Below are positions 207-54,048 of a stretch of DNA of 63,841 nucleotides, piece by piece. The stretch comes from Minisyncoccota bacterium (lineage in GTDB: Bacteria; Patescibacteriota; Minisyncoccia; Phycocordibacterales; JACOZG01): contig JAGVGK010000005.1 of NCBI GenBank assembly GCA_020057185.1, positions 1 through 63,841 on the forward strand, written 5' to 3'. Position numbers and translations under genes: made by a program. A model generated the notes under the pieces. The model was not told where the DNA came from, ran no database searches, and saw only the letters and a program-made list of their open reading frames with translations. How positions within the stretch are numbered: the stretch's first letter is position 1; each line of letters starts with the position of its first letter.

Positions 207-2573
207 CTATTGATTTAACCCGTGGCACTTTTTATATTTTTTGCCGGAACCGCAGGGGCAGGGGTCATTGCGCCCGACTTTTTTGATATTGCCGGCTGAT
301 GATGGCGCGACTAGATTAATTATTGGATTACGCAAGGTCGAACCTTGCGTTGCTAGCTGCTTCACTGCCGTGGCCACATCGTCCGCCATGGTCGCTTCCA
401 TTTGTTTGAAAAGTTGCAATCCCTCTCGTTTATATTCCACCAACGGATCGCGCTGACCATAAGCACGCAAGCGGACACTCTGCTTGAGATAATCCATCGC
501 TTCGAGATGATCCACCCACAGTCGATCAATCGCTTGGAGTGTAATTTGCCGATCCGGACTATCGCTAAAAAGAATGGCCTGCCGGCGACCGTACATAATC
601 ACCCGCTGATAATTCAAAACCGTATCATATTCGAGCAACTGCCGACGGGAGTCGAAGTTGAAACCTTCGATCTTGGCTTGCGCACTTTCAATCGCGCGCG
701 CCACCAAACGATTCTCAATCGGCTGATCATCCGGCACCCCGAGCCGGCGCATCATGGATTTAACTTTATCAGAGACAAACACTCGCGCCAAACTATCATC
801 GAAGGAAATAAAAAATTGCGTCGTGCCCGGATCGCCCTGCCGGCCGGACCGACCCCGAAGTTGATTATCAATCCGACGCGCCTCATGACGCTCGGTGCCT
901 AAAACAAAAAGTCCACCGAGACGGCGCACTTCGTCGAGCTCGGTTTCTGTCGCCTTCGCTCCGCCCAACTTGATGTCTACGCCACGACCAGCCAAGTTCG
1001 TGGCAATCACCACGCTCCCCTTCCGCCCCGCTTCAGCAATGATGGCGCCTTCTTCTTCATGATTCTTGGCGTTCAAGAGACGATGGGGCACACCTTCACG
1101 TGTGAGATAAGCCGAGACCAATTCGTTTTTATCAATCGACACGGTGCCGACGAGAACGGGCTGACCCAATTGATGAAGTTCCTTCAATCGTCGCGCCACG
1201 GCCACAAATTTCCCCGCTTCGGTTTGGAAGACTAAATCTGTGAGATCAGTTCGTTGGCTTGGACGATTAGTCGGCACCGCCACCACCTCGAGACCATAGA
1301 CTTTTCGAAACTCCTCGGCGGAAGTTAAGGCCGTGCCGGTCATACCCGCGAGCTTCCCGTAAAGCTTGAAATAATTTTGAAGTGTCACGCTGGCGTAAGT
1401 TCGAGATTCGTCTTTCGTCGCGACACCCTCCTTCGCTTCAATCGCTTGATGTAAACCATCAGACCACCGGCGACCGGGCTGAAGCCGACCGGTGAATTCG
1501 TCCACGATAATCACTTCGCCACCTTTAACCACATAATCATGATCGCGGTGGAAAAGCGCTTTGGCGCGCAACGCCGTCTCGAGGTGGTGAACATATTTAA
1601 TTCCTAAATCAGTATAAAGATTATCCACTTTCAATGATTTTTCGGTGCGGGCAATTCCTTCTTCTGTCACGCTAATTGTCTTCAATTTCTCATCGACCGT
1701 ATAATCCGTCACTGGTTCGTAATTATTAACGAGTTTAGCGAAAATTTGGTACAAACTATCCGAAGCGGCGACCGGCGCCGAAATAATAAGCGGGGTGCGC
1801 GCTTCGTCAATCAAGACCGAATCCACTTCATCCACGATGGCAAAGTGATGTTTGGGCCTGGCGGGCAGAATAATTTGCGAGACTTGGTCAGTTTGATAAG
1901 CTAGATTGTCACGAAGATAATCAAAACCGAATTCGTTGTTCGTGCCATAAGTGATGTCGGCTTCATAGGCTTCGCGCCGAGTGCACGGTTTTAGAAATTC
2001 ATGAAAAACTTGATAACCGCCACTCTGATCGCGCGCGGGATCAACTTCGCTGTGTGCCGAATCATAACGATAAGCCGTCTCGTGATTGATCACGCCGACC
2101 GATAAACCGAGCGCATCATAAATTTGTCCCATCCACACCGCATCCCGGCGCGCCAAGTAATCATTAACAGTGACCACATGCACCCCGCGCGCCGATAGAG
2201 CATTGAGATAAGCCGTGAGCGTTGTGACTAAAGTTTTCCCTTCACCCGTTTTCATCTCGGCAATTTTCCCTTGGTGCAAAATTATTCCGCCGAGCAATTG
2301 AACATCGAAATGTCTCTGCTTGAGCGTCCGCTTGGCGGACTCGCGCACCAGCGCGAAAGCGTGAGGCAATAAATCGTCGAGGGTCTCGCCCGCCTTGCCG
2401 TCGGGCAGGTCCGTCTCTAAACGAGCCCGTAATTTAGCCGTTTCCGCCTTAAGTTCCAAGTCAGAGAGACTGGCAAAACGGGGTTCTAATTCATTGATCT
2501 TAATCACTGTTGGTTCAAGTGATTTCAAGTAGCGGTCATTCCCCGTCCCGAAAATTTTTCCAATAAGTGACAT
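207..2573 (-). CDS. secA: Preprotein translocase ATPase SecA
   Basis: Motor motifs MKTGEGKTLV, DEVDSVLIDEARTPLIIS and TNLAGRGVDIKLGG; C-terminal zinc finger CPCGSGKKYKKCHG. ATG at 2573 (MSLIGKIFG) preferred over the GTG at 2591. Confidence 0.97.
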   Translation of the reverse strand: MSLIGKIFGTGNDRYLKSLEPTVIKINELEPRFASLSDLELKAETAKLRARLETDLPDGKAGETLDDLLPHAFALVRESAKRTLKQRHFDVQLLGGIILHQGKIAEMKTGEGKTLVTTLTAYLNALSARGVHVVTVNDYLARRDAVWMGQIYDALGLSVGVINHETAYRYDSAHSEVDPARDQSGGYQVFHEFLKPCTRREAYEADITYGTNNEFGFDYLRDNLAYQTDQVSQIILPARPKHHFAIVDEVDSVLIDEARTPLIISAPVAASDSLYQIFAKLVNNYEPVTDYTVDEKLKTISVTEEGIARTEKSLKVDNLYTDLGIKYVHHLETALRAKALFHRDHDYVVKGGEVIIVDEFTGRLQPGRRWSDGLHQAIEAKEGVATKDESRTYASVTLQNYFKLYGKLAGMTGTALTSAEEFRKVYGLEVVAVPTNRPSQRTDLTDLVFQTEAGKFVAVARRLKELHQLGQPVLVGTVSIDKNELVSAYLTREGVPHRLLNAKNHEEEGAIIAEAGRKGSVVIATNLAGRGVDIKLGGAKATETELDEVRRLGGLFVLGTERHEARRIDNQLRGRSGRQGDPGTTQFFISFDDSLARVFVSDKVKSMMRRLGVPDDQPIENRLVARAIESAQAKIEGFNFDSRRQLLEYDTVLNYQRVIMYGRRQAILFSDSPDRQITLQAIDRLWVDHLEAMDYLKQSVRLRAYGQRDPLVEYKREGLQLFKQMEATMADDVATAVKQLATQGSTLRNPIINLVAPSSAGNIKKVGRNDPCPCGSGKKYKKCHGLNQ

Positions 2574-42206: not shown

Positions 42207-43202
42207 TCATTGTAATAATTCAATAACACCCTTGGCAACATTGGCAAAATCTTGCCCGATTATTCGCACCCCAACTTCTCTCGCCACACCGACATCGGTC
42301 GAAACAATTTTACAACCTGCCGCTTGGGTTTCGACTAAAGTCATGCCATAACCCTCATACAGTGAAGTGACAAGAAACAGATCGCAAGTTTTATAATAAG
42401 AATACAGTGTTTCTTGATTGACCCAATTTTCAAAAATAATACTAGCTTCTAGCTTATAGCTTATAGCTTTTAGCTTCAAAATTTTTTCTTCTGGTCCGGA
42501 GCCAACAATTATCAACCCTATTCTCCTATTCGCGCGAATTAGAGAAGACACTGCTTCGATTGCCAAATCAATATTTTTTTCTTTAGTTAAACGCGAAGCC
42601 ATTAAAATTATTTTATCAAATTGCTGATATTTTTTATGCAAGTCTACCGTGATTGGTGTATTTTTAATTTTCTCTATGTCTACAAAAATCGGCCGTATTT
42701 CAATTTCAGCTTTTATCCGCCAGCTGGCGGATTTTAGAAAATCAGCAATTCGTTGGCTAACAACACGAATTTTGTCGGCTTTAGGTAATAAGAATTTGGC
42801 GAGCAGAAACCGAATTTTATTCTTGAACGATTCCTGCCAAAAATACGGACTGCCAATATCGGTATGGATTTGAAGTTCAAGTTGGGCTAATTCCCGACGC
42901 GAGATTAACCAACCTGTTAATCCTGATTCGAATGGATCTTGGCAAGTAACCAAATCAATTTTTAGTTTAAGTTTCTTAACTAATTTTACCGCATCAAAAA
43001 TGTAAAATAATTTTAATCTGGAATTAGTGGGATAAATCCAAAGTTTAGGTGAAATTTGAGCAGAGACAAGACCGAGAGATTTTTGGGCAAATACTATTAT
43101 ATGTGTCTCGTCAACCAAGTTTGCATAGCCAATTATCCGCTCGCGTACCGCGCTCGCGGGTTGAAACAAATTTCGATCCGAGCCGATACTTAAAATTTTC
43201 AT
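42207..43202 (-). CDS. Glycosyltransferase family 4 (carries a heptamer-array insert)
   Basis: SLYEGYGMTLVETQAAGCKIVSTDVG. Confidence 0.85.
   Translation of the reverse strand: MKILSIGSDRNLFQPASAVRERIIGYANLVDETHIIVFAQKSLGLVSAQISPKLWIYPTNSRLKLFYIFDAVKLVKKLKLKIDLVTCQDPFESGLTGWLISRRELAQLELQIHTDIGSPYFWQESFKNKIRFLLAKFLLPKADKIRVVSQRIADFLKSASWRIKAEIEIRPIFVDIEKIKNTPITVDLHKKYQQFDKIILMASRLTKEKNIDLAIEAVSSLIRANRRIGLIIVGSGPEEKILKLKAISYKLEASIIFENWVNQETLYSYYKTCDLFLVTSLYEGYGMTLVETQAAGCKIVSTDVGVAREVGVRIIGQDFANVAKGVIELLQ
42443..42477. repeat. Five tandem heptamers: tagcttc tagctta tagctta tagcttt tagcttc, in-frame in the GT4 gene
   Basis: Read directly. Encodes LKLKAISYKLEA on the minus strand. Confidence 0.95.
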
Positions 43203-44176
43203 ATCTTAATGACTAAATCTAAAAATTCCCGCGCTAGCTCTGACCAAGAATGTTCAAAATTAAAATTAGTGATTTTTTTAATTTGTGTCTCATAATTATT
43301 TTTATCACTTAACCACAACAATTTTCCTTCAACATCGGCCAGATTAAGCGGGTTAATGTATATGCCAATTTCACCCAAACGATCTTGTATACCATTTTCT
43401 TCGGTCAAAATAAAAGGCTTATTACAACGAATCGCGTCCAAAACAATGTTCGGACTGATTTCGGACACCGACGGGACAATGAGACCATAACAACTTCTGA
43501 TTTTTTCTGTTAATTTCTCCGGCGACCATTGACCAATTTCAAAAACAAAATTTAAAGGTTTGAGAATATCAAAATTTTTCAATTTTAAATTGCGTCCAGC
43601 TGATATAAAAACTTTTTGTTCTGGCTCGTTGGAAACTTCTTTTCTACCATAATAATTTTCGATAATTTTTGTTTTGGATAAATCTAAATTATATGGTTTC
43701 GCCCAAATTTGCCTCTGCCAATCAGTGCTAAAAACTATTAAACTAGACTGTTTCAAAATCCAACGAGTTAGTTTGAAAATAAGACGCTCTTTGAAATTGA
43801 AATTCGGAATTTCAGTTTGATAGAAATTGCGTAATAAAACAAGTTTACCGGTTCGTTCAACATAGTTTTCCCACAAGAAATCCCCGCCGGTGCGAATAAT
43901 CGTTTTTTTGCCCAATAGTCGACCAGCCATAACAGATGGCAAACCGACACTGAAAGTGTCGAGAGTTAAACACCAATCAGCCCAATGCAAAGTGGGGAAG
44001 ATTTTAAAAAAATAAAAGATATGTCGTAAACCACTCGGCCAGTGTTTAACATCCGAAAATTTAATCACTCGAACCTCATGGCCAAGTTTCTGAAATTCTC
44101 GTTCCAAATTAAATGCGTACTGCGCCGGACCACCAATGTCCGGTGGATAAATACCAGTGGCGATTAGGATTTTCAT
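43199..44176 (-). CDS. GT-B fold glycosyltransferase
   Basis: MKILIATGIYPPDIGGPAQY N-terminus and a degenerate E-x7-E region. Confidence 0.7.
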   Translation of the reverse strand: MKILIATGIYPPDIGGPAQYAFNLEREFQKLGHEVRVIKFSDVKHWPSGLRHIFYFFKIFPTLHWADWCLTLDTFSVGLPSVMAGRLLGKKTIIRTGGDFLWENYVERTGKLVLLRNFYQTEIPNFNFKERLIFKLTRWILKQSSLIVFSTDWQRQIWAKPYNLDLSKTKIIENYYGRKEVSNEPEQKVFISAGRNLKLKNFDILKPLNFVFEIGQWSPEKLTEKIRSCYGLIVPSVSEISPNIVLDAIRCNKPFILTEENGIQDRLGEIGIYINPLNLADVEGKLLWLSDKNNYETQIKKITNFNFEHSWSELAREFLDLVIKI

Positions 44177-45264
44177 AGTGATAGAAGACTTCTCATTTGT
44201 TTAGCAATAATTTCCCAATTGTACTTATTCAGAACCATTTGACGAGCTTCGTTAATAACTTGCTTCACCTTGTCGTGATTGGTCGGATCCAAAATATATT
44301 GCACTTTCTCGGCGACACTTTTGGGATTGTCCGCTTCACAGAACCAGCCCGTGACACCGTCGGTTAGAAAGTCCGGGATCCCCCCTACTGGCGTACCAAC
44401 CACCGGCACGCCCGCCGCCATCGCTTCGAGAAACGAATTACCGAGTCCTTCAGACCGTGAGGGTCGCACAAACACATCGGCTTGAGCGAGATAATTTGAT
44501 ACTTCATTTGGTGGGACATGACCGAGAAATTCAATCCGAGCTTGTAGCTTGTAGCTTGCCTGCCCGACGGCAAGGCGGGTAGCTTGTAGCTTTAAATTTT
44601 TCTCTTCAATCCCACCACCGAGAATCTGAAGTCTTATATTATCCGGCAAAAAACGCATCGCTTCAATTAAAATATCTACGCCATTTTTCTTCACCAATCG
44701 CCCCGTGTGAATAATTACCAGGTTAGCTTTTAGCTTGTAGCTTTTAGCTTGTAGCTTAAATTTATCCAAATCTACCCCATTAGGAATTACCGTAATCGGA
44801 CAGCGTGCCCCCATCGTTCGCGCCCACGCGCCGAGATAATTAGAAATAACTTGGATGTGATCGGCCACTTTAAAAACCCTAAAAATTCTCGGTAAAAGTA
44901 ATCTCAAACGATACGCCCAGCTATTTAGATCATCCCCTTCTTGCAAAGTTAAAAGAAACGGCACAGTTAGAAAACGACGCTTGAAAAGCGCGCCGGCCAT
45001 CCCCGCCTGATTGGCCATAATCGCCCAAATTGCGTCGTAGGGCTTAATTTTATGTCTTCTTGAGGCTTCTCGGTAAGCCCAGAACGGATAAGAATATTTA
45101 GACCAAAAATTTCTAATGTCGGCGTGGATAATTTCAAACTGAAATTCCGGCAATCCTGCCTTGTCGGCAGACAGGCGATCGGTAATCTCTTTCACCGCCA
45201 CTTCGGCTCCGCCGACAAAGGGGAAATAAGCAAGAGAAAAAATTAAGATTCGAGGCGTCGACAT
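44173..45264 (-). CDS. Glycosyltransferase family 4 (carries three repeat-element inserts)
   Basis: SRSEGLGNSFLEAMAAGVPVVGTPVGG. Confidence 0.85.
   Translation of the reverse strand: MSTPRILIFSLAYFPFVGGAEVAVKEITDRLSADKAGLPEFQFEIIHADIRNFWSKYSYPFWAYREASRRHKIKPYDAIWAIMANQAGMAGALFKRRFLTVPFLLTLQEGDDLNSWAYRLRLLLPRIFRVFKVADHIQVISNYLGAWARTMGARCPITVIPNGVDLDKFKLQAKSYKLKANLVIIHTGRLVKKNGVDILIEAMRFLPDNIRLQILGGGIEEKNLKLQATRLAVGQASYKLQARIEFLGHVPPNEVSNYLAQADVFVRPSRSEGLGNSFLEAMAAGVPVVGTPVGGIPDFLTDGVTGWFCEADNPKSVAEKVQYILDPTNHDKVKQVINEARQMVLNKYNWEIIAKQMRSLLSL
44538..44593. repeat. Composite element: 3 heptamer units + a 21-nt palindromic insert + 2 heptamer units
   Basis: gagcttg tagcttg tagcttg [cctgcccgacggcaaggcggg] tagcttg tagcttt. 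Encodes LKLQATRLAVGQASYKLQA. Confidence 0.9.
44724..44758. repeat. Five tandem heptamers: tagcttt tagcttg tagcttt tagcttg tagctta
   Basis: Read directly. Encodes KLQAKSYKLKA. Confidence 0.95.
45155..45176. repeat. 22-nt imperfect palindrome cctgccttgtcggcagacaggc, identical to 53504..53525
   Basis: Exact 22/22 match read by eye. Encodes LSADKAG in the same frame at both sites. Confidence 0.95.
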
Positions 45265-50014: not shown

Positions 50015-50180
50015 GGGGCTGACCGAAATTGCTACTCGCCAAAGCGAAAATAATAATCAAGAAACCGAGAATTACAAAAATAACCGTCTTGACCAACGCG
50101 GGGAAGCCGAGTAAGGCCACTAAAATAATTAGAAATCCGAGCAGAGCATTATTCGCATTAGCGGAGGTTGAGGAACGCAT
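50004..50180 (-). CDS. Small two-TM membrane protein (58 aa)
   Basis: MRSSTSANANNALLGFLIILVALLGFPALVKTVIFVILGFLIIIFALASS... Overlaps the murC 3' end by 23 nt and the next gene's start by 11 nt. Below the track cutoff. Confidence 0.45.
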   Translation of the reverse strand: MRSSTSANANNALLGFLIILVALLGFPALVKTVIFVILGFLIIIFALASSNFGQPHGS

Positions 50181-51393
50181 GATTTAATGATACATCACCC
50201 GCGCCAAGATTCAAAATTAGATCGTGACGATCGACCTTGGCTAAACGCTTTTCCACTGCGAGGAAGTTCGGCACATAAACCGCCCGCGGGATCACGGTGG
50301 CCAAAATACGGCTAGAAATAGTTTTATCTTTGGGCTCGCGCGCGGCATAAATTGGCAAAATTAAAATTTCGTCGGCGTCGCCGAAACTCTCAGTAAATTC
50401 TTTAAATAAAAGTTTGGTGCGACTGTAGAGATGCGGTTGGAAAATAACAATGATCCGCCGACGCGGAAACTCTTCGCGCGCGGTGGCAAGCGTCGCCTTA
50501 ATTTCCGTCGGGTGATGCGCGTAGTCATCATAAATTAAAGCGCCCTTTTTAGTTTTACCCTTGTACTCAAACCGGCGCCAGGTCCCGCGAAACGAAGCGA
50601 GGGCTCGGCGCGCCAAACTTTCAGATATGCCAACCGTTTTCGCCACCGCGATCGCGGCTTGAGCATTGCGCTGATTGTGTTGACCCGGGACCAGAAGTTT
50701 AATCGGGAGTTTAATTTGGTGATACTCTTTTTCCGTGATTACTTTCCCGCTCCTCGGTACTTTACTCGCCAACTCGGCGAAGGCACTTTGGATATCCGCC
50801 AGATCGTGATAATAGTCGAGATGATCGGTGTCAATGTTGGTGATAACCAAAATCTGGGGCGACAAGTTCAAAAATGATCGGCGATATTCACACGCCTCCA
50901 CCACCAACGGCCCTTTTCCCGCGATAAAATTAGAACGATGTTTATCCGATCGTCGAAGTAAACTCCCGACAATCACCATCGGATCGCGTCGCGCGGTGAG
51001 GAGAATTTCCGCCACCATCGCGGTCGTCGTGGTCTTACCGTGCGTGCCGGCAATGGCGATGGTAAAAACCTGATGTGATAATTCACCCAACGCCTCCGGA
51101 TAACTCAAAACTTTTATTCCCAATTTACGCGCACGAGTGAGTTCGGGATGATTGGCCGGAATGGCAATGGTGTAAATTACTAAATTAATATCGGCAGTAA
51201 TATTCCCCGCTTTTTGTTTCAGAAAAATCTTAACTCCTAATTTCTCCAACTCCGTCGTAATTAGCGATGCCGTCCGATCCGAACCAGACACTTCATACCC
51301 ATCATTCAAATACTTCCGCGCCAACGCCGAGACGCCAATCCCGCCAATGCCGATAAAATAAACTTTTTGTTGACTGGACAAATTAATCGCCAT
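50158..51393 (-). CDS. murC: UDP-N-acetylmuramate--L-alanine ligase
   Basis: VYFIGIGGIGVSALA, GTHGKTTTTAM and DDYAHHPTE. Confidence 0.92.
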   Translation of the reverse strand: MAINLSSQQKVYFIGIGGIGVSALARKYLNDGYEVSGSDRTASLITTELEKLGVKIFLKQKAGNITADINLVIYTIAIPANHPELTRARKLGIKVLSYPEALGELSHQVFTIAIAGTHGKTTTTAMVAEILLTARRDPMVIVGSLLRRSDKHRSNFIAGKGPLVVEACEYRRSFLNLSPQILVITNIDTDHLDYYHDLADIQSAFAELASKVPRSGKVITEKEYHQIKLPIKLLVPGQHNQRNAQAAIAVAKTVGISESLARRALASFRGTWRRFEYKGKTKKGALIYDDYAHHPTEIKATLATAREEFPRRRIIVIFQPHLYSRTKLLFKEFTESFGDADEILILPIYAAREPKDKTISSRILATVIPRAVYVPNFLAVEKRLAKVDRHDLILNLGAGDVSLNHAFLNLR

Positions 51394-51456
51394 AGAGTAG
51401 AAATAGGATAGCATTGATCTGGTCTTTAACTCAAGACAAAAAAAAGGAGATAAGTG

Positions 51457-52270: not shown

Positions 52271-52308
52271 CCCCGCCTACATCTGCAAAGTTGTGGCGGG
52301 GATTTTTA
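52271..52308 (+). terminator. Intrinsic terminator between convergent genes
   Basis: CCCCGCC-17 nt-GGCGGGG followed by ATTTTTATT. Confidence 0.7.
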
Positions 52309-53622
52309 TTCCAATTTTTTCACCAGCTTTACAAACTGGGCACCACGGTCGTATTCATTTTTAAATCCGCCAGGTGGCGGACCAAAAGACGCAAACCCCG
52401 GACTTAAAAGTAAAATATCGCCAGTCTTAGCTATTGTTACCCCTAATTCAACCGCCTCTTTTAAATCCTCAACTTCTCTATACTTTAAATTTTTCATTTT
52501 GAGTTTTAAGTTCTTCGTCCCCGTTCCAGGCAATAAAATAATTTCTTTACAATATTTAGGTAAAGTTTTAATTAAAATATCTAACGGCAAATTTTTATCC
52601 GCGCCACCCATGATTAGAATAATATCTTTCTTTTCCCCGCCCAATGCTTCCAACGCCACCTTCAAAGCATCGGGAGTGGTGGAAGTGGTGTCGTTATAAA
52701 TCTTAATCCCCCGCCAAGTGCGGATGGGTTCCAAACGCCCAGCGACTCCAGTGAAATTCTCCACGGTCTGCTTAATCAGTTTTTCCGGAATCTCTAAAAT
52801 TCTAGCGACCGCGACCGCACAAGCCGCATTGATCCGGTTGTGCTCACCCAAGATTTTTAGCTTCCAACTTTTAGGCAACTCTTCAACCTTCTCTCCCCGC
52901 ACTAGATGATCTTCTGGCTTCTGATACTTAAAAATATTTTCTTTATCAGATAAATACTTTTTCATATCACCGTGGTAATAATTAAAGTGATCAGCCATAA
53001 AGTTAGTAAACACCGCAATATCTGGGCTGATTTTTAAATCGCCGAAACCTTGCAACTGCCACGAATCAAGTTCTAAGACCACCCAATCGCCCAATTTAAC
53101 TTTCGGCAACAACGCGAGTGTCGAAACACCCAAAATATTTCCGCCCAGCCACACCTTCCCAACCTGTTTTAAAATTTCATAAATCAAGCTCGTCACTGTC
53201 GTTTTGCCTCTTGTGCCGGTCACACCAATTATTTTCGCGCCCAATGATTGAGCAAATTTTACGAACAACGCCGTGCTCATCATCACCGGAATTTTATTTT
53301 TCTTAGCTTCGGCGATATAAGGCGAATCAAGTGGCACACCCGCAGCTTTGATAATCAAATCGCGGTGCTGAAAATCTTGAAGTCGGTGTTTACCCAGAAC
53401 ATAAGTAATAGCTTTTAGGTTATAGCTTCTAGCTTTTAGCTTCTTTAGCGAAGGAGACAAATCTTTGGCTGATTTCAAATCAGTCACAATAAGTTCAGCA
53501 CCACCTGCCTTGTCGGCAGACAGGCACTCCGCTAAAAACTTGGTATCCCCCACCCCGCGACCGAGAAGCCCGAGCCCCATCAGTGTAATTTTCTTCCCTC
53601 GAAAATAATCTCGATAATCCAT
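52306..53622 (-). CDS. murD: UDP-N-acetylmuramoylalanine--D-glutamate ligase (carries two repeat-element inserts)
   Basis: ITLMGLGLLGRG and GVTGTRGKTTVT; Mur ligase layout. Confidence 0.9.
   Translation of the reverse strand: MDYRDYFRGKKITLMGLGLLGRGVGDTKFLAECLSADKAGGAELIVTDLKSAKDLSPSLKKLKARSYNLKAITYVLGKHRLQDFQHRDLIIKAAGVPLDSPYIAEAKKNKIPVMMSTALFVKFAQSLGAKIIGVTGTRGKTTVTSLIYEILKQVGKVWLGGNILGVSTLALLPKVKLGDWVVLELDSWQLQGFGDLKISPDIAVFTNFMADHFNYYHGDMKKYLSDKENIFKYQKPEDHLVRGEKVEELPKSWKLKILGEHNRINAACAVAVARILEIPEKLIKQTVENFTGVAGRLEPIRTWRGIKIYNDTTSTTPDALKVALEALGGEKKDIILIMGGADKNLPLDILIKTLPKYCKEIILLPGTGTKNLKLKMKNLKYREVEDLKEAVELGVTIAKTGDILLLSPGFASFGPPPGGFKNEYDRGAQFVKLVKKLE
53409..53443. repeat. Five tandem heptamers: tagcttt taggtta tagcttc tagcttt tagcttc, in-frame in murD
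   Basis: Read directly. Encodes KLKARSYNLKA. Confidence 0.95.
53504..53525. repeat. 22-nt palindrome cctgccttgtcggcagacaggc in murD, identical to 45155..45176
   Basis: Encodes LSADKAG between AEC and GAELIVTD of the MurD Rossmann region. Confidence 0.95.
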
Positions 53623-53645: not shown

Positions 53646-53680
53646 AAACAAAACAAAAGCCCGTCAACAAAATGACGGGC
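53646..53680 (-). terminator. Intrinsic terminator
   Basis: GCCCGTCA-6 nt-TGACGGGC followed on the minus strand by TTTTGTTTTGTTT. Confidence 0.75.
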
Positions 53681-53709: not shown

Positions 53710-53970
53710 TCAGGTGGTGCTAATCGTAAGAACTGGAATCTGATCATAAACGGCTAGACCAGGCTTTCGGGCAATCCTGCTGAGTGATTCTCTCAATCGA
53801 ACAGCATTGACAACGCCATCCTCGACCGAGTCAATTATTGCTGCCATCACTAGCCGGGTTAACCTAAAATTAGATGGCAAGACACTATCACTAGAGAAAC
53901 AGTCTAACTCCACACTACCGGGCAAAATCTCACTGATAATTGCCACCGCACTTTTACTCTTACTTTTCAT
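53710..53970 (-). CDS. Orphan 86-aa hypothetical protein
   Basis: GGAGG Shine-Dalgarno 5 nt upstream of the ATG at 53970, and its own terminator. No recognisable family. Confidence 0.45.
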   Translation of the reverse strand: MKSKSKSAVAIISEILPGSVELDCFSSDSVLPSNFRLTRLVMAAIIDSVEDGVVNAVRLRESLSRIARKPGLAVYDQIPVLTISTT

Positions 53971-54048
53971 CTTGGCCTCCATTCCATTACCTAAACCCGT
54001 AAAGACCTAACACCACCAACGCGATGGCATTCTCCAACGACCATAGCA

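Follow-up and report, generated by a model that had tools for sequence, protein, structure and literature searches.

The window analyzed in this study, the whole 63,841-nt contig JAGVGK010000005.1 of the Minisyncoccota bacterium assembly GCA_020057185.1, carries on its minus strand (52306-53622) a murD gene, encoding UDP-N-acetylmuramoyl-L-alanine--D-glutamate ligase, with two short repeat elements inside its coding sequence: a patch of tandem heptamers (53408-53442) and a GC-rich hairpin of 21 nt (53504-53524), both on the minus strand. The window is contig C31 of the source genome, G000 (782,866 bp in 46 contigs, 99% complete); other G numbers denote genomes of relatives, among which G003, G004, and G005 are congeners. 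The two elements are probably independent passenger insertions of the small dispersed repeat (SDR) or repetitive extragenic palindrome (REP) kind, translated with the rest of the protein and surviving because they landed in permissive surface loops. An older patch of five AAGCTAN units, shared with congeners, came first and brought a net four residues to the loop between helix alpha2 and strand beta3, and the hairpin entered the Cys33 codon recently, adding LSADKAG to the tight turn between alpha1 and beta2. The original prediction for this locus correctly placed both element types within an intact murD open reading frame (ORF); the heptamer array lies at 53408-53442 (or to 53444) and the 22-mer at 53504-53525. 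Its implication that they arrived together does not hold, since the patch is shared with congeners while the hairpin is specific to G000, which indicates events of different age.

The murD ORF is uninterrupted over 438 aa, and both the Pfam matches (Mur_ligase_M, 5.4e-20; Mur_ligase_C, 1.5e-10) and an AlphaFold2 (AF2) model show the three-domain architecture of Mur ligases, with central ATP-binding and C-terminal domains and a MurD-type Rossmann-like N-domain. The catalytic and binding residues are conserved: the window's MurD matches every column found invariant across 120 homologues (53/53), including the P-loop G133-T-G-T-x-G-K-T142, E184, D211-H212, and N310-D311, and the GLGxxG motif and the T-D-L-K and AAGVP segments contacting uridine diphosphate (UDP) are retained. 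The family profile finds solved MurDs at 6e-77 to 1e-50, far ahead of MurE and MurC, and the close homologues that have names belong to Candidatus Vogelbacteria and other Paceibacteria/Parcubacteria. One practical effect of the inserts is that they take the Pfam N-domain match below its cut-off (MurD-like_N, residues 11-114 against profile positions 2-87, 22.6 bits with a cut-off of 27 bits); this alignment sets 104 residues against 86 profile positions, and approximately 7 of the surplus residues are lineage-wide and unrelated to the repeats. A MurD query against G000 matched only itself and a 28%-identical murC (50158-51414); therefore, the insert-bearing gene is the sole murD of this 783-kb genome, which has no second copy. 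A terminator-like hairpin with 8 pairs and a T-run (53659-53680, minus strand) precedes murD, approximately 35 nt from its start codon, and presumably ends the upstream 90-aa ORF at 53710-53982, in which case transcription of murD would depend on read-through or on a separate promoter.

Codon-level comparison with congeners delimits the hairpin insertion. The 22-mer CCTGCCTTGTCGGCAGACAGGC (53504-53525), which recurs without mismatch at 45155-45176 (0 matches expected), had been described as a 22-nt palindrome; the 22-mer is present where it was placed, but the inserted unit is 21 nt, CCTGTCTGCCGACAAGGCAGG on the sense strand, spanning 53504-53524 or 53505-53525 owing to a 1-nt ambiguity at its boundary. 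The insertion splits the Cys33 codon after its second base: G005 reads GCC GAA TGT|GGA GCC GAA, while the window reads GCG GAG TG[21 nt]T GGT GCT GAA, the bracketed nucleotides being C CTG TCT GCC GAC AAG GCA GG. No target-site duplication is present at the murD hairpin, and the in-frame addition amounts to seven residues (L34-S-A-D-K-A-G40). This first insert site is free of inserts in 117 of 120 homologues, which have an uninterrupted FLAEx-G-A turn, and a MurD tree built without the insert columns places the three exceptions (the window's gene, G004/P0005, and P0071) as three independent changes. P0071 (L021:1501-2955), a Parcubacteria GW2011-type MurD that is 55% identical and seen on 17 contigs, carries the degenerate 21-mer CTTGTCCGCCGATGAGGCGGA, translated as LSADEAD, in the corresponding Cys codon and likewise directly behind TG, and its insertion appears to be an independent event at the same nucleotide position. 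The murD of G004/P0005 (L002; G004:C26:90060-90098) has an unrelated 39-nt nested palindrome, VAPARTERGSARS, adding 13 aa at the same turn; as a candidate repeat family it was rejected, being a singleton in six congeners. From these comparisons, the hairpin in the window's murD is recent, inserted after the split from the sequenced congeners, and specific to G000.

To the left and right of both elements, the sequence is collinear with orthologous murD, and therefore nothing points to a chimera. An assembly artefact, in which the 22-nt repeat shared with a glycosyltransferase gene caused a mis-join or a spurious insertion, would fit the fact that this protein is recorded from this contig alone, but several observations make it highly improbable. 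Exactly 21 nt have been added in frame between collinear flanks, while a mis-join at a repeat in the same orientation 8.3 kb away would instead result in loss or duplication of the sequence between the copies. In addition, the same element occupies the same position in the MurD found on 17 contigs, and the glycosyltransferase copy is present in two independent assemblies.

The heptamer patch was found by Tandem Repeats Finder as an array of period 7 and 5.1 copies (53408/9-53444) and parses unit by unit, along the sense strand from 53442 down to 53408, as AAGCTAA AAGCTAG AAGCTAT AACCTAA AAGCTAT. The heptamer thus reads TAGCTTN on the plus strand and AAGCTAN in the murD sense, with three of the five units perfect, and its pattern AGCTTNTAGCTTNTAGCTT has 10 matches in the window compared to 0 expected. 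The patch encodes K61-L-K-A-R-S-Y-N-L-K-A71, for a net gain of four residues (A64-R-S-Y67) in the alpha2-beta3 loop, which has at most 5 residues in its modal form (93/120 homologues; KKFKN, KKYKN) and 9 in the window's MurD (KARSYNLKA). The long form also occurs in G005 (KAKSYKLKT) and P0002 (KTKSYKLEA); in G003 the loop is SPKNYHLKA and the patch has decayed at the DNA level, and G004 and P0004 have 5-residue loops (TKLQA/TKLKA). The loop-length differences among orthologues are whole codons, with the frame kept. Since the patch is common to congeners and the hairpin is found only in G000, the patch predates the hairpin and is a clade-level feature subject to codon-sized changes in length. 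Relative to the modal MurD of the lineage, the two elements together add 7 + 4 = 11 residues, fewer than the approximately 19 first estimated.

A tandem array within a coding region whose unit length is not a multiple of three could in principle serve as a phase-variation contingency locus, turning murD on and off as slipped-strand events add or remove 7-nt units. Such a role has almost nothing to recommend it here: the units are imperfect (a variable seventh base plus two further mismatches), array size is constant at five units across six loci, the orthologues differ by whole codons and stay in frame, and murD is a single-copy gene of the core cell-wall pathway. The six five-unit arrays of G000 comprise four in the window, one of them split, plus one each on contigs C19 and C41. 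All five ORF-located arrays are in the sense orientation; the antisense strand of the heptamer would put TAG in frame.

The original prediction had proposed that structures be predicted with and without the inserts, and the same fold was obtained in both cases, with a natural insert-free homologue, P0004 (78% identical; alignment A1), serving as the comparison. The AF2 model of the window's MurD, built with 120 homologues, has a predicted local distance difference test (pLDDT) score of 93.5 and a predicted template modeling (pTM) score of 0.93, and that of P0004 scores 93.7 and 0.93, respectively. The N-domain of the window's model runs through strand 11-15, helix 22-35, loop 36-42, strand 43-48, helix 56-63, loop 64-71, and strand 72-76, and the P0004 model has the same order of elements with loops of 3 and 7 residues at the insert sites. 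The two insert blocks are the sole N-domain dips in pLDDT (79 and 68), while the corresponding blocks of P0004 score 93-98. Solved MurDs are the best fold matches to the window's model (E. coli 4uag, TM 0.82), and all those in the profile alignment (S. agalactiae, A. baumannii, P. aeruginosa, E. coli, and T. maritima) have a tight helix-x-Gly-strand turn at the first site and a loop of 2-5 residues at the second. Both inserts, in the alpha1-beta2 and alpha2-beta3 loops, are located at the N-terminal ends of beta2 and beta3. In Rossmann-type folds, the N-terminal strand ends form the sheet edge opposite the ligand-binding edge; the inserts therefore lie at the edge opposite the UDP site. Residues D35-T36-R37 of E. 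coli MurD, which contact UDP, correspond in the profile alignment to T47-D48-L49-K50, where beta2 has its C-terminal end. According to the models, the inserts would do no more than lengthen two loops on the surface, at a distance from the active site, and leave the fold unchanged. With the fold, the UDP-contact segments, and the invariant catalytic residues all kept, normal function of the enzyme is expected.

Insertions of this size appear to be ordinary for MurDs of this lineage, contrary to the initial view that two of them would be unusual for a compact, essential Mur ligase. When the alignment of the 120 closest homologues was searched for internal insertions (at least 4 residues, with the majority columns as reference), 53% of the sequences contained at least two and 25% contained at least three. 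The window's MurD has three, which together come to 15 aa and include the widespread PPGG; by number of extra residues, it is 34th among the 120. Approximately ten loops are hot spots (after residues 33, 63-71, 124, 152-156, 195, 218-219, 246, 329-333, and 377), and the alpha2-beta3 loop alone exceeds 5 residues in 27/120 MurDs, with at least 20 inferred changes. Hairpin sequence also turns up elsewhere in MurDs: the insert PARRQGG of P0011, after alignment residue 333, is the frame-0 translation of CCTGCCCGACGGCAAGGCGGG, a hairpin-family copy found in the window at 2389-2409 (minus strand) within an 807-aa ORF and translated there as DLPDGKAG, and thus represents another loop and another frame in another lineage. 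The inserts LNLPDGQ and TRLPDG look like further translations of the hairpin. Congeners (L002, L003, L009; P0006, P0011) have, past the P-loop helix and following the position of residue 154 in the window's MurD, an insert rich in Cys and Gln (HYCQCQGLPLT and similar) that the window's MurD lacks and that may be another short repeat-derived insert. One MurD homologue from a Joint Genome Institute (JGI) metagenome (P0108, 564 aa) has an N-terminal SET-domain (PF00856) extension.

The 21-mer in murD belongs to a dispersed family. Using the degenerate pattern CCYGYCYGMCGRCRAGGCRGG with one mismatch allowed, 25 copies were counted in G000, 21 in G004, 3-9 in the other congeners, and 0-6 in each of 35 other genomes of the order, with 0 matches everywhere for the reversed-pattern control. 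Three of the G000 copies are identical (murD, 45155-45175, and one on contig C27), and the G000 copies are mainly singletons within long ORFs, where both orientations and several frames occur, so that their peptides differ (LPDGKAG/LSADKAG, PALPSGRP, TRLAVGQA). None of the six frames of the 21-mer, as read by eye, contains a stop codon; since the element is also 21 nt long, its insertion never breaks a reading frame. A public scan covering one genome per prokaryotic species recovered at least 117 loci. Among the matches listed, hosts include Patescibacteria, Bacteroidota (with cultured Arenibacter, Maribacter, and Hyunsoonleella), Ignavibacteria, Planctomycetota, Omnitrophota, Gammaproteobacteria, Spirochaetia, and others; a purine precedes the element (position -1) at 105/117 loci; and 65/118 copies are within ORFs of at least 100 aa. 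Also among these listed matches, all six frames are used across genes, and 34 of the 65 in-ORF copies are read in the xLP(A/D)GKAGx frame, compared to approximately 11 expected under even frame use.

These frames bear on what the inserts do. The bias towards LP(A/D)GKAG is the outcome expected from selection acting on a translated peptide, and a frame bias in a stop-free 21-nt element is expected only if the ribosome reads it. It is possible to imagine that the inserts are never translated, being excised from the mRNA or bypassed by the ribosome in the manner of the 'byp' elements of yeast mitochondria or the gap in T4 gene 60, as the element is GC-rich, hairpin-forming, mobile, and inside coding sequence. 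However, its length of exactly 21 nt, the lack of stops in six frames, the strong frame bias in long ORFs, and the absence of a flanking take-off/landing codon pair leave very little room for this idea. There is likewise only a slight chance that the added residues confer a new adaptive property on MurD, such as a partner-binding or regulatory loop. The preference for LP(A/D)GKAG and LSADKAG (34/65 among the matches listed) and the independent alteration of the same loop in three MurD lineages could be taken in its favor; however, the same DNA yields unrelated peptides elsewhere (PALPSGRP, TRLAVGQA, PARRQGG), the insert is a short Gly/Ala-rich peptide modeled as a low-confidence loop on the face opposite the active site, and purifying selection that removes copies in less loop-friendly frames would account for the frame bias just as well.

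A function of the inserts at the RNA or DNA level under selection, for example as a translational pause for N-domain folding, in mRNA stability, or as a binding or uptake/recombination signal, is also unlikely, even though more can be said for it. The murD hairpin with its flanks is predicted to fold in the mRNA sense (-17.6 kcal/mol, z -2.2), nearly all 29 genomic copies keep Watson-Crick or wobble pairing at the six outer positions of the stem (1-6/16-21), and the family is near-invariant across many phyla among the matches listed. A copy in a GT4 glycosyltransferase gene, described below, is moreover unchanged between two species. On the other hand, copies occur in either orientation and all frames at only approximately 25 per 783 kb, and no close relative carries the murD copy, their murD genes presumably functioning without it. 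No structure is predicted for the heptamer patch (z +0.4), which is decaying in G003, and neither an intrinsic terminator nor a promoter was predicted at the hairpin or the patch of murD. The best reading therefore agrees with the earlier suggestion that the elements are neutral at the protein level, their identity being set at the nucleic-acid level, as the same 21-mer is read in all six frames elsewhere. As judged from the models, the two inserts are expected to be neutral or slightly deleterious selfish or by-product DNA and not adaptations of MurD; their translation, their neutrality, and the way in which they were inserted are what we infer from these comparisons.

The relationship between the two elements is best seen in the GT4 gene (44173-45264), whose orthologue in G004 (L148; G004:C26:82600-84400) is 77% identical in amino acids and 79% in nucleotides. 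The gene contains, on the minus strand, a 21-mer identical to that in murD (45155-45175, translated RLSADKAG) and orthologously shared with G004, as well as two five-unit heptamer arrays. One array (44537-44592, minus strand) is split 2+3 by a 21-nt hairpin (44559-44579, plus-strand orientation, translated TRLAVGQA) and is unsplit in the G004 orthologue; the other (44723-44757, minus strand, KLQAKSYKLKA) is unoccupied here and split by a hairpin in G004 (TRLDVGQA). Occupancy is thus reciprocal, the hairpin being in array 1 in G004 alone and in array 2 in G000 alone, and in both cases it has entered at the same point within the array and lengthened the protein by seven residues. This reciprocal presence and absence shows mobility on the timescale of species and a preference for arrays. 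Approximately 10 of the 117 public copies are likewise located exactly between units of heptamer arrays, the units of which vary (GAAATTG, GATTTCG, GACTTTG), among the matches listed. By these comparisons, the heptamer arrays are landing pads and the hairpin the mobile part, and the murD array is an unoccupied pad; the murD hairpin is located 60 nt upstream of it, outside any array. A further unoccupied array of five units, KLKAISYKLEAS, is found at 42442-42476 (minus strand) in a second glycosyltransferase gene (42207-43202).

How the hairpin moves can only be proposed. The best guess is a hairpin-directed single-strand reaction carried out in trans by an HUH/Y1 enzyme similar to REP-associated tyrosine transposases (RAYTs), which would fit the lack of target duplication, the purine at position -1, the preference for arrays, and the gain of copies between species. 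The Y1/HUH genes of G000 encode one IS200-type TnpA and seven paralogous RAYT-like proteins of approximately 230 aa, for which the top NCBIfam match is REP-associated tyrosine transposase (41-49 bits, with a cut-off of 80 bits). Across 41 relatives, the number of 21-mers is correlated with the number of Y1 genes (Spearman 0.64; 0.53 outside the genus; both uncorrected for phylogeny). Despite this correlation, linkage of the 21-mer to RAYTs was demoted to a weak hypothesis, as no flanking RAYT gene was found. The RAYT-like loci themselves have a REPtron/TIRYT-like arrangement in which the hairpin differs from paralogue to paralogue: four of the seven genes (C22:13765-14493, C35:3315-4052, C28:12175-12906, and C1:26819-27576) are bracketed by their own hairpins of 17-23 nt, such as TGTCAAGGCACCGCCTTGACA on both sides of the gene on C22, and some paralogues have also been invaded by their own hairpins. 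A second hairpin family, YCCCGAC-N(3-9)-GTCGGGR, often arranged in tandem doublets, has 16 copies in G000 compared to 0 in the reversed control (contigs C2, C3, C6, C22, C29, C30, C34, C40, and C42). One of its copies on C22 adjoins a 21-nt hairpin, and in the murD of G024 (L013) a doublet of this family is translated in the alpha2-beta3 loop.

Several observations weigh against reading the inserts as neutral passengers moved by such an enzyme. The dips in pLDDT at the insert blocks could reflect local destabilization in the modeled protein, and the insertion at the same nucleotide in a 55%-identical murD may reflect real target specificity beyond a filter for permissive loops. The GT4 21-mer is identical at 21/21 positions between G000 and G004, while only 3.3% of 21-nt windows are that conserved, which hints at constraint or homogenization rather than free decay. 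Concerning the enzyme, the 21-mer flanks none of the seven RAYT-like genes in G000, and a RAYT-like ORF was found in 0 of 117 public 8-kb loci among the matches listed, in a search whose positive control worked. Concerning the allele, the exact protein was recorded on one contig only, and a variable-gap pattern for the murD junction, whether empty or occupied, found no match in JGI metagenomes.

A bolder possibility is that the patch and the hairpin are two halves of one undescribed insertion system, unlinked to a transposase and spread across phyla, that combines fixed-size five-unit landing pads with a site-specific mobile hairpin. This is a tentative proposal that we consider rather doubtful. 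If true, such a two-part system would be a standing generator of 7-residue loop extensions in the core enzymes of streamlined genomes, and it would recognize a DNA feature precisely enough to insert independently at one nucleotide of murD in lineages with 55% identity.

On the preferred reading of two tolerated passenger insertions, this murD is a normal single-copy gene with small loop extensions, and annotation pipelines should not call it disrupted. Patescibacteria, despite extreme genome reduction, would tolerate and keep gaining mini-insertions in core enzymes. MurD offers a natural experiment in this respect, with dated insertions, an insert-free sister, three independent changes at one turn, and an empty landing pad 60 nt from the hairpin, and the gene is therefore convenient for measuring the fitness or enzymatic cost of such elements and for seeking the activity that moves 21-nt hairpins.

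The literature on the candidate phyla radiation (CPR)/Patescibacteria yielded nothing relevant on such elements, and the closest known kind appears to be the small dispersed repeats of the Nostocaceae, to which the 21-mer is likened by behavior and description rather than by sequence. In work from 2008 on Nostoc punctiforme and its relatives, Elhai and colleagues reportedly described SDR4-6 as hairpin-forming repeats of 21-27 nt in tens to thousands of copies, present or absent precisely at orthologous sites, often embedded in tandem heptamer repeats, located inside genes without breaking them, and lacking a linked transposase. The 21-mer corresponds to this description in its length and dispersal (21 nt; 25 copies in G000 compared to 0 in the control), in its exact presence or absence at orthologous sites (murD in G000 versus G005/G003; GT4 in G000 versus G004), and in its embedding at a constant position in heptamer arrays (44537-44592, the G004 orthologue, and approximately 10 of 117 public copies among the matches listed). 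However, the SDRs have cyanobacterial hosts, while the 21-mer is found in Vogelbacteria-like Patescibacteria and many other phyla, and its copy number of 25 per genome is far below theirs. SDR5 inserts between nt 3 and 4 of HIP1 (PMC4390886). The arrays may likewise be compared with the short tandemly repeated repetitive (STRR) heptamer sequences of cyanobacteria, which also consist of tandem 7-nt units and host SDR insertions. In contrast to STRR sequences and contingency loci, the window's arrays have a constant five units and are imperfect, sense-oriented in genes, and in frame across species; the murD array lacks the perfect, number-variable, frame-shifting units of phase-variable loci, and hypervariable slippage does not appear to be at work in these arrays.

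Palindromes in frame within genes are also known from two other systems. Rickettsia palindromic elements (RPEs) were reportedly described in 2000 by Ogata and colleagues as approximately 100-150 nt long and adding tens of residues. They are thus roughly five times longer than the 21-mer, and they also differ in being known only from Rickettsia and in having no known association with heptamer arrays. RPEs are palindromic repeats in frame in coding genes, essential ones included (PMC3733652), and they resemble the 21-mer in occurring in a reduced genome as in-frame palindromes that are translated and tolerated in surface regions. Some REPs are also in frame inside genes, including essential ones (PMC3733652), and together with the RPEs they make in-frame palindromes in essential genes an established phenomenon. 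As in REP/REPIN-RAYT systems (PMC3733652, PMC3116915), the 21-mer is a short GC-rich hairpin with frequent G-T stem pairs, and G000 encodes seven RAYT-like Y1/HUH proteins. However, REPs are defined by a GTAG or CGTC tetranucleotide at one hairpin end (PMC3733652), while the 21-mer reads CCTG...CAGG/CGGG and has neither tag. Furthermore, REPtrons have REPs flanking a RAYT gene, while copies of the 21-mer flank none, either in G000 or in the 117 public loci among the matches listed, and REPs are mainly extragenic and often form inverted doublets, while the 21-mer occurs mostly as intragenic singletons.

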